Source: Vicinamibacterales bacterium
GTDB lineage: Bacteria > Acidobacteriota > Vicinamibacteria > Vicinamibacterales > UBA823
DNA: 64,000 nt
Assembly (NCBI GenBank): GCA_036012125.1
Contig: DASCOS010000020.1
Location: 189,460-253,459 of the forward strand
Direction of reading: 5' to 3'
The translations under genes and the position numbers were made by a program. Numbering within the stretch: the stretch's first letter is position 1; each line of letters starts with the position of its first letter. The notes under the pieces were generated by a model that made no database searches, was not told where the DNA came from, and saw only the letters and a program-made list of their open reading frames with translations. Below are positions 59,428 to 64,000 of the stretch, one piece after another.

Positions 59428-59514
59428 GCGGAAGTGGCGGAACTGGCAGACGCGCAAGCCTCAGAAGCTTGTGCTCGCAAGGGCGTGGGGGTTCAAATCC
59501 CCCCTTCCGCACCA
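59428..59514 (+). tRNA. tRNA-Leu (anticodon CAG), class II with long variable arm, encoded CCA
   Basis: Manual cloverleaf. Acceptor stem GCGGAAG/CTTCCGC. Anticodon stem CAAGC/GCTTG with loop CTCAGAA. Variable arm TGCTCGCAAGGGCGT. T-arm GGGGG-TTCAAAT-CCCCC. Discriminator A plus CCA. Confidence 0.9.
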
Positions 59515-59624
59515 CATTTTCCTAGCAATTCTAGCAGTAATGAAAAAGGGCGGCGATGACCGCCGCCCCGTGAAGCCGCCGTGTGCCAATTTTGTGTCAA
59601 TTTACGGAAAAAACTCAGCGCACT
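59455..59624. repeat. Direct repeat copy 1: tRNA-Leu 3' 60 nt, downstream terminator, and a relic of the Sel1/PQQ gene's 3' tip
   Basis: 59460..59541 is identical to 61091..61172. Similarity then continues with point differences and one indel as far as ...aaaaaactcagcgc. Confidence 0.85.
59541..59569 (-). terminator. Rho-independent terminator (minus-strand sense) downstream of the SGNH hydrolase gene
   Basis: GGGCGGCG-(5-nt loop)-CGCCGCCC, a perfect 8-bp GC stem followed on the minus strand by TTTTT. Confidence 0.55.
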
Positions 59625-59751
59625 GCGGTCATGGAAAGCGACTCAGCTACGTCATCGGTCGGCTCCGCTGACGCTTCCATGCGTTCCAACGCTGGCTACT
59701 GGTTCGACGTGAGCGGTTCTAGTGCTCCGGAGTCGGTCGAAATACAAGATG

Positions 59752-61171: not shown

Positions 61172-61200
61172 TCAAAAAGGGCGGCGATGATCGCCGCCCC
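61172..61200 (-). terminator. Rho-independent terminator (minus-strand sense) downstream of the Sel1/PQQ-dehydrogenase gene
   Basis: Same 8-bp GC stem as at 59548..59568 (loop atgat instead of atgac), with TTTTT on the minus strand. It lies 35 nt after the stop at 61235. Confidence 0.6.
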
Positions 61201-61234
61201 GTCAGATCGTTTTGTGTCACTTTTTCCAAAAAAC

Positions 61235-64000
61235 TCAGCGCTCAGCAACAAGTAGACGAATGATTCCGTCATGTTTGTTTAGCACAAAGATCTGGTCGTT
61301 GGGGCCGAGACCGAGACGCATGTCAGCGCGAGTCACCACCTCTTGCCCTTCCACGGTGTTTCTATCCTGCATCAACTGGAGCAAGGTCTTTGGGCCATCA
61401 CCATTGTTGAACAGAATACGGTGAATTGCCTCCTGGCCACCCGCAGGAAGGTTGTCAGCAGAAAAGGCAAAGACCTCGCCGCTGGGGTTGTCACCAAACA
61501 GCACGAGGTTTGTGAGTTGGGGAATCGCGGCCACGCGATAAACATAGACACCTGTCACCGCGGAGGCTGGCTGCAGAAGCGGGTCGAGTTGCCCGTATTC
61601 GACGACGGGATACGTCATCTGAGGATCGCCGCGTGGGTTGGCGAGATTGACGACCCCTTGAGTGCCGAAAAATCCGAAGCTGCCTTCCCAGTTGTTCCAG
61701 CCGAGGTTGGCGCCGGCCGTGACGAGGCTAACCTCTTCCACTGACGCTTGCCCGATGTCGGCAACAAACATGTTGCCAGTAGCCGAGTCCCAGTTAAAGC
61801 GTTGAGGGTTACGCAGACCCAAGGCGTAGATTTCCCCGAGTGTGTCAGGATTGCGATCGTTCGCAAATGGATTGTCGGCGGGAATGCCGTACTCACCGTT
61901 GGTGCTGTTGGAGCCCAGCGGGTCGAGACGCAGAATCTTCCCGAAAGCGGAGCCCGGATTCTGGGCCAGGTTGAGTGGGTCACCACCATCGCCACCATCG
62001 GCGGCGCCCATGTAGAGCAATCCGAACTCGGCATCGCCTGGCGATGCAAGCGGGTTGAAGGCGAGGTGGCCACCATTGTGATTGCCAACGGGCTGTTCGT
62101 AACGGACTAGCTCGCGTGGCAAGCCGCCATCGTAGGTCACGGCCTCAGGATGTTCAGCAGTCCACTCGAGCAGGACCGTATCGTGCGAGTTAATGTCACC
62201 GCCTGACGTAAAGTCAGCCGGCGGCCGCGTATCAGTGGTGTCCGTGAGGGTGTAGAACTTCCCAAAGCCGGGAGTTCCTAGGTCGTTAAACTGCGGATGA
62301 AAAGCGAAACTCTGAAAACCTTGCTCGCTCCAGGACGAAATAACAGGTATCCCCCAATTGTGCTCATTCAGGTCGAGGTACTGTGTCACAGTCACGCCGT
62401 TGTAGCTAACGCTATATAGCGGTCCCCGCATGTCATTCACAAACAAGCGACGCGTGCCTGGCTCATCGATCAGCAGCATCATCCGTGCCGCCGTTCCATC
62501 ACGGTTCGGGATGGTGGCGAACTCGACAATGCCGACCTCGATGGCACGATGCCCTGCGGCAATGAGGTTAGAAAAGGGGTCTTCCGCGACGCCATGACCG
62601 TTGGCGTAGATAGCCACCAAGGCGCGCTGCGCCGCCGCCGAACCCTGTTTGGCCGCTAGCAGATACAACCGCTCTGCTTCACTTGCGTCCTGCGCCACAC
62701 CCCGACCCTCGGCATACATGCTCCCAAGGGTGAGCTGGGCCGCAAGATGTTCCTGTTCGGCTGCGAGTAGATACCACCGCACCGCTTCGTTCGTGTCCTG
62801 CGCCACGCCTCGCCCGTCCAAATACATACTTCCAAGAGTGAACCGCGCGTCAGCATGCCCTTGCTCCGCCGCCAGCCGATACCACCGCACCGCTTCGGCT
62901 TCGTCCTGCGTAACACCGCGGCCACGCCCATACATAATCCCAAGGGCAAGCTGCGCCGTAGCATCGCCTTGTTCCGCCGCCAGCCGATGCCACCGTGCCC
63001 CCTCCGCCTCGTCCTGTGTAACCCCGCGCCCCTCGGCATACATCACCCCGAGACCATGCTGCGCTTCAGTACTGCCTTGCTCAGCCATCCGGCGGACCCA
63101 CGCCGTGGCCTCGGCAGCACCTTGCTCCGCTGCCTGCCGATACCACCACAGCGCTTCTCTCGTATCCTGCGCCACGCCCTTACCGGAAAAATACATCCCC
63201 CCAAGCTCAAGCTGCGTATCAACATGCCCCTGCTCCGCCGCCTGCCGATACCATCGCAGCGCTTCGGCTGCGTCCTGCGCCACACCCCGGCCGTCGGCAT
63301 ACATCTCCGCAAGACCCGCCTGCGCCGGCATCACGCCCTGCTCCGCGTTCAGGTGCAGCCACGCCAGCACCTCCGCATCCCCCTGCTCGGCCGCCAGCCG
63401 ATACCACCGCACCGCTTCGGCAGCGTCCTGCGCCACACCCCGGCCGTCAAAATACCTTCCGCCAAGGCCGGTTTGCGCCGGGAGATGGCCTTGCTCCGCC
63501 GCAAGGCGCCACCACCGCACCCCTTCGGCGGCATCTTCCGCGACCCCTTGCCCCGAGAAATAAATCTCCCCAAGCGCAAACTGCGCTTCAGCATTGCCTT
63601 GCTCAGCTATCCGGTGGATGCCTGACACGGCCTCGGGACTGCCCTGTTCAGCGGCCAAGCGATACCACCGTAATGCTTCCGCCACATCCTGCGCCACGCC
63701 TTGGCCCGAGGCATAAACAGCCGCGAGGATAACCCGCGCTTCGGCCCAACCTTGATTGGCCGCTTCACGAATCCACGTTACCGCCTCCTCCGACCCTTCC
63801 TCGACCGCGCGGCGATACCAGGCCATCGCTTCCGCCGGGTCCTCCGTAACACCGCGGCCTCCCTCATACATCACTCCGAGGTTCACCTGCGCCGCAACAT
63901 TTCCTTGCTCGGCCGCCGGCCGATACCACCGCACCGCTTCCCCGTCATCCTGCGGAACCCCCCGCCCGGTGGCATACATACCCGCAAGGACGACCTGCGC
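61235..64000 (-). CDS. Sel1-repeat (SLR) array fused to a PQQ-dependent sugar (glucose/sorbosone) dehydrogenase-type beta-propeller; 5' end outside window
   Basis: The frame stays open to the window edge (…AQVVLAGMYATGRGV). At least 12 SLR units are present (xEAVRWYRLAAEQGxxxAQxxLGxMYxxGRGVxQD). C-terminal motifs are HNGGHLAFNP, GLRNPQRFNWD and DIGQASVEEV...GANLGWNNWEG. Confidence 0.85.
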   Translation of the reverse strand, partial: AQVVLAGMYATGRGVPQDDGEAVRWYRPAAEQGNVAAQVNLGVMYEGGRGVTEDPAEAMAWYRRAVEEGSEEAVTWIREAANQGWAEARVILAAVYASGQGVAQDVAEALRWYRLAAEQGSPEAVSGIHRIAEQGNAEAQFALGEIYFSGQGVAEDAAEGVRWWRLAAEQGHLPAQTGLGGRYFDGRGVAQDAAEAVRWYRLAAEQGDAEVLAWLHLNAEQGVMPAQAGLAEMYADGRGVAQDAAEALRWYRQAAEQGHVDTQLELGGMYFSGKGVAQDTREALWWYRQAAEQGAAEATAWVRRMAEQGSTEAQHGLGVMYAEGRGVTQDEAEGARWHRLAAEQGDATAQLALGIMYGRGRGVTQDEAEAVRWYRLAAEQGHADARFTLGSMYLDGRGVAQDTNEAVRWYLLAAEQEHLAAQLTLGSMYAEGRGVAQDASEAERLYLLAAKQGSAAAQRALVAIYANGHGVAEDPFSNLIAAGHRAIEVGIVEFATIPNRDGTAARMMLLIDEPGTRRLFVNDMRGPLYSVSYNGVTVTQYLDLNEHNWGIPVISSWSEQGFQSFAFHPQFNDLGTPGFGKFYTLTDTTDTRPPADFTSGGDINSHDTVLLEWTAEHPEAVTYDGGLPRELVRYEQPVGNHNGGHLAFNPLASPGDAEFGLLYMGAADGGDGGDPLNLAQNPGSAFGKILRLDPLGSNSTNGEYGIPADNPFANDRNPDTLGEIYALGLRNPQRFNWDSATGNMFVADIGQASVEEVSLVTAGANLGWNNWEGSFGFFGTQGVVNLANPRGDPQMTYPVVEYGQLDPLLQPASAVTGVYVYRVAAIPQLTNLVLFGDNPSGEVFAFSADNLPAGGQEAIHRILFNNGDGPKTLLQLMQDRNTVEGQEVVTRADMRLGLGPNDQIFVLNKHDGIIRLLVAER
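62575..64000 (-). repeat. In-frame coding tandem repeats (Sel1/SLR units, about 108 nt, degenerate)
   Basis: Recurrent cgataccaccgcaccgcttcgg / gtcctgcgccacaccccg blocks on the plus strand. These correspond to the AVRWYRLAAEQG / GRGVAQD peptide repeats. Confidence 0.7.

Follow-up and report, generated by a model that had tools for sequence, protein, structure and literature searches.

Why does a single gene for an SGNH hydrolase lie between two copies of the 3' half of a tRNA-Leu gene, and why does the similarity of these copies run on past the end of the tRNA? The locus lies near the end of a 64,000-nt stretch of contig DASCOS010000020.1 from a marine Vicinamibacterales acidobacterium; we refer to the whole of that stretch as the window, and to the DNA between the copies, together with its ends, as the SGNH unit. 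The answer that we favor, with a probability of roughly 80% for the joint reading, is that the SGNH unit is a decayed, integrase-less remnant, similar to a cis-mobilizable element (CIME), of a tyrosine-integrase element specific for tRNA-Leu(CAG), that the two repeats are the left and right attachment-site scars (attL and attR) of this one unit, and that the unit is part of an island that grew by tandem accretion.

Copies of a tRNA-Leu 3' half in a tandem array

ARAGORN and Rfam (58.5 bits for the tRNA) place a single intact tRNA-Leu(CAG) in the window, and the Rfam scan found nothing else. The direct repeats occupy positions 59452–59626 and 61083–61246, offset by 1631 nt, and copy 1 consists of the 3' part of the intact tRNA gene plus ~110 nt downstream. 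A repeat finder reported 142 nt at 91% identity without gaps (59452–59593 versus 61083–61224) and a second pair of 37 nt at 81% identity (59590–59626 versus 61210–61246). When gaps were allowed, 149 of 164 aligned positions were identical, with one 11-nt indel whose extra bases are in copy 1, and the longest exact block was 82 nt (59460–59541 and 61091–61172). The repeat finder and the gapped alignment thus confirm the initial annotation in its reading of a repeat that brackets the SGNH gene; also as it had stated, 59455–59514 matches 61086–61145 with one mismatch (C59459 versus T61090), the 28-nt spacer that follows is identical, the hairpin differs by one loop base, and ttttgtgtca plus aaaaaactcagcgc are common to both copies. 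In both copies, the hairpin is scored as a minus-strand intrinsic terminator, and the SGNH hydrolase gene is the only complete gene between them. Copy 2 was considered as a duplicated functional tRNA gene and rejected: ARAGORN made no call there, and Rfam gave only a 17-nt sub-threshold match to the T arm (61118–61134).

The series of tRNA-derived segments, or cores, continues beyond the window. L001, which is the same contig at 99.96% identity and reaches 7 kb past window position 64000, contains two further displaced tRNA-Leu 3' fragments, and the JGI contig Ga0187827_10000454 (L011) contains a third, a degenerate fifth core. Reading away from the tRNA, the order is SGNH, core 2, a gene with Sel1 repeats and a glucose-sorbosone-dehydrogenase domain (Sel1-GSDH), core 3, an amidohydrolase gene on the opposite strand, core 4, genes for a CBM9/DUF5916 protein, a cupin and a 483-aa protein, and core 5, with spacings of 1631, 3784 and 1517 nt and then ~4.55 kb between cores. 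Only the 3' part of the Sel1-GSDH gene is in the window; in L001 the full-length protein is 1147 aa and is followed by core 3, a displaced one (L001 5963–6025). This gene is therefore unit 2 of the array, bounded by tRNA fragments that lie outside the window, and not the untouched native site for which it had initially been taken. At least four units are stacked at the tRNA-Leu gene, and the SGNH unit, which stands next to the tRNA, would be the newest of them.

A common attachment site and a complete element

We aligned 15 junctions, comprising the 2 in the window, the 3 further array copies in L001 and L011, and 10 from other marine contigs and the metagenome-assembled genome (MAG) SAT1339; 3 are intact-tRNA (attL) ends and 12 are displaced fragments. 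The displaced-fragment junctions that extend far enough have one three-part site, consisting of a P arm, the core, and a P' arm. The P arm occupies ~90 nt upstream of each displaced core and reads GGCGTGTG..TTTT..TCACTTGYGCGTACCYGTGACTAGCTGTGACAATTTTTGT.AATAGAGACAGG.TGTGAC.....GTGTGACTAG. The core is 60 nt of the tRNA, and displaced copies begin GCACAAGTCTCAG where the true tRNA has GCGCAAGCCTCAG. The P' arm, of ~100 nt, is made up of the spacer CACATTTTCCTAGCAATTCTAGCAGTAATGAAAAA, the GC hairpin GGGCGGCGATGACCGCCGCCC, two direct TGTGNC repeats, and AAAAAACTCAGCGC; in copy 2, an 11-nt deletion took one of these repeats. The same three-part site accompanies unrelated cargo in other contigs (L007 and L012–L017), including a DUF1501 plus DUF1549/1553 pair, a methyltransferase plus ABM pair, and a pyrroloquinoline quinone (PQQ) propeller. 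The P arm of the SGNH unit is conserved wherever a displaced-fragment junction has sequence reaching it, and a P arm also adjoins the amidohydrolase unit, whose gene points the other way, so the P arm is part of the site rather than of the cargo gene. TGTGAC occurs three times in 100 nt of the SGNH-unit P arm versus 11 times on that strand across the 64-kb window, and the TGTGAC and TGTGNC repeats are candidate arm-type integrase binding sites.

Two core variants were seen among the junctions, CTCAGAAGCTTGTG-CTCGCAAG and CTCAGGAGCTTGTGCCTCACAAG. The latter differs from the host tRNA in the anticodon loop and the variable arm; variant cores are found at L001 4446–4509, at L011 8579–8643, and in L012, L016 and L017, as opposed to the type at window 61083–61145. 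Such cores may reflect another tRNA-Leu allele or another host, either as the target of integration or as a source of transfer. A search of IMG/VR with the displaced-core pattern gave no match. In L014 (107–5565), two displaced cores enclose a 5.4-kb unit with a DUF1501 gene and a PSCyt1/DUF1549/DUF1553 gene. Such a gene pair is typical of Planctomycetes-type genomes, and in L014 it is cargo of the same element family.

A complete element with these ends is present in contig L013 (Ga0315336_1007345), in which the same upstream flank and tRNA-Leu gene are followed by 10.4 kb of element DNA. Its genes encode a 422-aa tyrosine integrase convergent with the tRNA (PF00589, 2e-26; phrog_1, 1.7e-55), which is the integrase with tRNA-Leu specificity that the initial annotation had suggested looking for, together with an MT-A70 DNA methyltransferase, a head-maturation protease, a large terminase, and an AAA_25 helicase-primase-like protein. 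At the far end, 10.4 kb from the tRNA, are a P arm, matching that of the SGNH unit, and a displaced core. The attL of L013 reads AAGAGCG plus GCGCAAGC and its attR reads AAGGGCG plus GCACAAGT, a marker difference that places the crossover within 22 nt including the anticodon loop, which is the usual crossover location for tRNA-specific tyrosine integrases.

The attL side of L013 (1–325) is 89.6% identical in DNA sequence to window 59369–59693, and the identity runs through the P' arm into the last codons of the integrase gene. On the minus strand, window 59615–59692 encodes ALERMEASAEPTDDVAESLSMTAVR, where the L013 integrase ends ALERMEASAEPSDDVAESPLTAAVR; the relic is identical to integrase residues 398–422 at 20 of 25 positions (BLASTP, E 9e-10). 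Searches with tblastn extended weaker similarity to integrase residues 381–422, reaching window position 59743, which leaves 9 nt to the SGNH stop codon; there is an in-frame stop upstream. Another unit, in L007, retains a longer integrase relic (83 aa, 59% identical) at the corresponding position. The tail of copy 1 had been described as a remnant of the Sel1/PQQ gene; instead, minus-strand 59615–59695 corresponds to the final 25 codons and stop of the element's integrase. The last two codons and stop of the Sel1-GSDH gene lie in the conserved AACTCAGCGC block, and the GCGCTGA at its end is most simply explained as an integrase stop region reused after a deletion.

We suggest the following course of events. 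The element family would carry an attP of ~250 bp, composed of a P arm with TGTGAC repeats, 60 nt copied from the tRNA (anticodon stem through 3' end), and a P' arm that combines the spacer and hairpin terminator with two TGTGNC repeats and the integrase stop codon. Integration, by crossover in or just past the anticodon loop, would rebuild the tRNA with element-derived P' sequence behind it and push the old tRNA 3' fragment, now with a P arm in front, to the far end. Repeated integrations would have stacked the units at the tRNA-Leu gene, and each unit would later have lost its integrase and other element genes in place by deletion, keeping one to three cargo genes; the SGNH unit would have kept the last 25–42 integrase codons, abutting the SGNH stop codon. 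With no recombinase of its own, the SGNH unit could then move only through a related integrase acting in trans or through homologous exchange via the arms. On this account, homology extends past the tRNA because neighboring units descend from one element family with the same P' arm, and no host DNA would have been duplicated. Thus, of the two possibilities raised at the outset, the decayed tRNA-targeted islet is borne out by the L013 ends, the integrase relic and the array, and an unusual duplication is not needed; the ~100 nt of homology beyond the tRNA, which had seemed unexpected for attachment sites, is the P' arm conserved at junctions of the family.

Close relatives differ at this site. 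In the short-read MAG SAT1339 (L019), whose core flank is 95% identical, the tRNA-Leu gene is followed by a P' arm and then by a 741-aa Sel1-GSDH gene without the SGNH unit. This is the arrangement, tRNA-Leu directly before the Sel1/GSDH gene, that the initial annotation had proposed as an empty site, and it is empty for the SGNH unit only. No further cores occur in the 7.7 kb of SAT1339 sequence, and the genes past Sel1 there (for an alcohol dehydrogenase and an aminotransferase) are matched neither in the window nor in L001/L011. L007 contains the identical truncated SGNH unit with a different distal neighbor unit, and in L016 the gene for the 483-aa protein forms a unit of its own, so that unit 4 is split differently. 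Among more distant relatives, L021, L023 and L024 have integrase homologs next to the same tRNA; L021–L024 have one tRNA-Leu and no displaced fragments within the available sequence, and the array could not be traced deeper. The nearest SGNH homolog outside the cluster (L099, 82% amino-acid identity) is in a non-island setting without arms, between dUTPase and metallo-beta-lactamase genes. Homology to L099 is confined to window 59756–60909, indicating that the SGNH cargo is a plain gene fitted between the arms. We found no integrase-bearing parent of the SGNH unit.

Weighing the explanations

Slippage or unequal crossing-over could in principle have duplicated the tRNA 3' half and terminator locally, catching the SGNH gene between the copies with no mobile element involved; the two direct repeats are 91% alike, the DNA between them contains no recombinase gene, and the insert has a GC content of 0.53–0.56, like the flanks. 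We consider this very improbable, because the three-part junction flanks unrelated genes in other contigs and forms the ends of the complete integrase element in L013, an integrase 3' relic follows copy 1, and nothing upstream of the tRNA corresponds to the ~90 nt of P arm before copy 2. An assembly artefact, in the form of a chimeric or collapsed join at the repeated tRNA sequence, might be suspected from the many contigs that end in or near the repeats (L002–L004, L008–L010, L019, L020, L023, L024). However, the tRNA–SGNH–core–Sel1 order is found at 97.6–99.98% identity in six independent assemblies from different studies, in data sets assembled separately and held at ENA, NCBI and JGI, and one 448-kb contig spans the whole array; the arrangement is therefore neither chance nor mis-assembly, and an artefact is scarcely credible. 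A different proposal, which carries the CIME or trans-mobilization idea a step further, is that the SGNH unit is an active minimal cassette, excised and reinserted by an element-encoded integrase in trans, and that the tRNA-Leu locus is an integron-type array anchored on a tRNA. Units here are the size of a gene and hold very little additional DNA, the SGNH unit has retained both arms intact with their repeats, the identical truncated unit has two different distal neighbors and is absent from SAT1339, unit 4 is split differently in L016, and many metagenome contigs are just the 1.55–1.65 kb unit. As in integron arrays, most cargo consists of single, promoter-poor genes, every unit has a recombination site as its boundary, and the newest stands by the anchor. 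The 1.55–1.65 kb contigs were nevertheless rejected as circles, being pieces collinear with the chromosome that stop within the repeat, and neither a circular junction nor an excision product was found. Presence or absence of the unit and its changes of neighbor are equally explained by integration at internal cores or homologous exchange through the arms, the copy-2 P' arm lacks one repeat, and there is no integrase nearby (window plus 7 kb). A true integron cassette array was also tried and rejected: the locus has no IntI/attI platform and no integrase homolog in the window, the array is anchored on a tRNA, its junctions are tRNA-derived, double-strand att sites with long arms rather than folded attC sites, and one unit is reversed. 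We regard the cassette proposal as unlikely; if it were true, marine Acidobacteriota would have an integron-like gene-capture platform built on a tRNA attachment site.

Several observations count against the decayed-element reading that we prefer. No full-length integrase of the L013 family is present in the 64-kb window or in the 7 kb beyond it, and every unit is remarkably compact, with a single gene between arms, a compactness that is not an obvious outcome of random decay in 10-kb elements. It is uncertain where the island ends on its distal side, and the gene that follows the last core also looks horizontally acquired. The TGTGAC repeats and the promoter-like box described below are consensus-level observations. 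SAT1339, a short-read MAG, contains many Ns, and its SGNH-less junction could in principle be a repeat collapse; the P' variant found there (AATTTCC...GGTAATG) is also present after attR in L013, and this speaks for a genuine SGNH-less arrangement. Measured against what is generally expected of a tRNA-borne island, the locus is bounded on one side by an intact tRNA and on the other by a direct repeat of the tRNA 3' part, and its SGNH unit varies in presence among close relatives. The position next to attL holds only the 25–42-codon relic in the SGNH unit, and the full integrase gene occupies that position in L013.

Features, cargo and related islands

Table. Parts of the SGNH unit and adjoining features (window positions).
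Feature	Position	Strand	Evidence or remark
Intact tRNA-Leu(CAG)	59428–59514	+	3' 60 nt (59455–59514) are the probable attL core; ARAGORN, Rfam
P' arm of SGNH unit	59515–59614	.	Conserved at L013 attL and at other junctions reaching this far
Spacer in this P' arm	59515–59546		
GC hairpin in this P' arm	59547–59569		Minus-strand terminator; terminator scan
Two direct TGTGNC repeats in this P' arm	59582, 59593		Putative arm-type integrase sites
Relic of tyrosine integrase 3' end	59615–59743	-	59615–59692 encodes ALERMEASAEPTDDVAESLSMTAVR*; weaker similarity to 59743
SGNH/GDSL hydrolase, 379 aa, cargo gene	59752–60891	-	Pfam Lipase_GDSL_2, 9.9e-18
Promoter-like box TTGAAC-N17-TAGGCT	60947–60975	-	Faces the SGNH gene; repeat family D8, consensus match
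P arm of SGNH unit	60976–61082	+	TGTGAC direct repeats at 61020, 61030, 61069; TGTGAA at 61059
Displaced tRNA-Leu 3' fragment (copy 2), probable attR core	61083–61145	+	GCACAAGT versus GCGCAAGC in the tRNA; non-functional
P' arm of the next, presumably older unit	61146–61234	.	Spacer, hairpin terminator (61178–61200), single TGTGNC repeat (61213)
Sel1-repeat/glucose-sorbosone-dehydrogenase gene, unit-2 cargo	61235–64000, continuing off the window	-	Pfam Sel1, 4e-98; GSDH, 7.6e-21

The SGNH hydrolase has a hydrophobic N-terminus, and the box at 60975–60947 may drive its gene; boxes of the same type also occur upstream of other cargo genes. A related version, TTGAAC-N17-TAGGAT, is found in most units (L001 1739–1780, 4551–4592, 6127–6168, and 9901–9942, the last equal to window 60950–60991), and one copy is inside unit 4, at a point from which a core has apparently disappeared. 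The genes for the 483-aa, CBM9/DUF5916 and Sel1-GSDH proteins, which are unrelated, have in common at the DNA level a ribosome-binding region and the first ~11 codons, M-x-D/G-R-H-T/A-R-x-I-x-L (L001 277–319, 2350–2392 and 6204–6246); start region and box together may represent a shared leader or promoter module. The Sel1-GSDH gene (window 61235–64000; L001 6214–9657) contains internal repeats with spacings of 108, 153 and 261 nt. It encodes 1147 aa here versus 741 aa in SAT1339 (L019 5411–7636), with 80% nucleotide identity versus 95% for the flank, and its repeat region is evolving rapidly.

Just past the last displaced core, L011 encodes a bifunctional rhamnulose-1-phosphate aldolase/short-chain dehydrogenase (8693–10819, minus strand) that is 87% identical to the protein of Pseudomaricurvus alkylphenolicus and 75–80% identical to those of other Cellvibrionales. 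This similarity to gammaproteobacterial proteins is too high for an acidobacterial gene, and the gene was therefore probably acquired recently from a gammaproteobacterium. We had considered it as a marker of the distal island border, a use that failed because the gene is probably itself acquired. On the core side of the tRNA, window 53059–57457 contains housekeeping genes for MreB, a GGDEF protein, a PpiD/SurA-like rotamase and SppA; genes for MreC, MreD and PBP2 are farther out in L001, and nothing mobile is among the core-side genes. The SppA sequence assigns the organism to marine Acidobacteriota, order Vicinamibacterales; an exact protein look-up of SppA gave no record, the called start of the gene being different. 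Contigs L019, L020, L023 and L024, from four related GTDB MAGs, stop 0.4–8 kb from the tRNA-Leu gene.

Integration, decay to a CIME and a further integration form the accepted route to tandem islands (PMC5704250), with CIME examples among the ICESt1-related islands of Streptococcus thermophilus (Pavlovic 2004; Bellanger 2011, reviewed in PMC5704250). Like a CIME, the SGNH unit is one of several tandem units behind the 3' end of the target gene and keeps attL and attR, with both arms and both cores, and it carries no integration or transfer genes. Its descent from an autonomous element is indicated by the integrase 3' relic, which is contiguous with the P' arm as in L013. It differs from described CIMEs in that the parent would be a small phage- or satellite-like element (terminase, head protease) rather than an integrative and conjugative or integrative and mobilizable element, and in its marine acidobacterial host and single-gene units; no functional element was found next to the SGNH unit in this genome segment.

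Tycheposons of Prochlorococcus integrate at island-proximal tRNAs and are separated only by partial tRNAs; they include types like phage-inducible chromosomal islands (PICIs) and cargo types, and their remnants show fragmented integrases and extra partial tRNAs (bioRxiv 10.1101/2020.12.28.424599). The hosts there and here are marine plankton, and the units described here are likewise parted by partial tRNA copies. In contrast, the phylum and the tRNA differ, tRNA-Leu(CAG) being outside the seven Prochlorococcus sites, and the attachment arms here are long (~250 bp with repeats). L013 has a tyrosine recombinase, a helicase-primase-like gene and packaging genes of the kind described for PICI-like tycheposons, a comparison made by description only. 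In Dehalococcoides, ssrA islands lie in tandem downstream of one small RNA gene and are bounded by direct repeats of its 3' end with extra conserved bases alongside, and 15 islands without an integration module were proposed to be cis-mobilizable (PMC3146451). Those islands involve a serine recombinase, a 20-bp repeat and transfer-messenger RNA, whereas the locus described here involves a tyrosine integrase, a 60-nt core with arms, and a tRNA.

The feature is ordinary in kind; what is new is the host lineage. L013 supplies a defined attP architecture and a candidate integrase that are open to testing. The tRNA-Leu locus breaks most short-read assemblies of this lineage, so the flexible genes located here are probably under-represented in MAGs, which bears on how the completeness and flexible gene content of such genomes are judged. 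The locus documents growth of a tandem-accretion island at a tRNA in an uncultured marine Vicinamibacterales lineage, by the same process as in Prochlorococcus, Streptococcus and Dehalococcoides.

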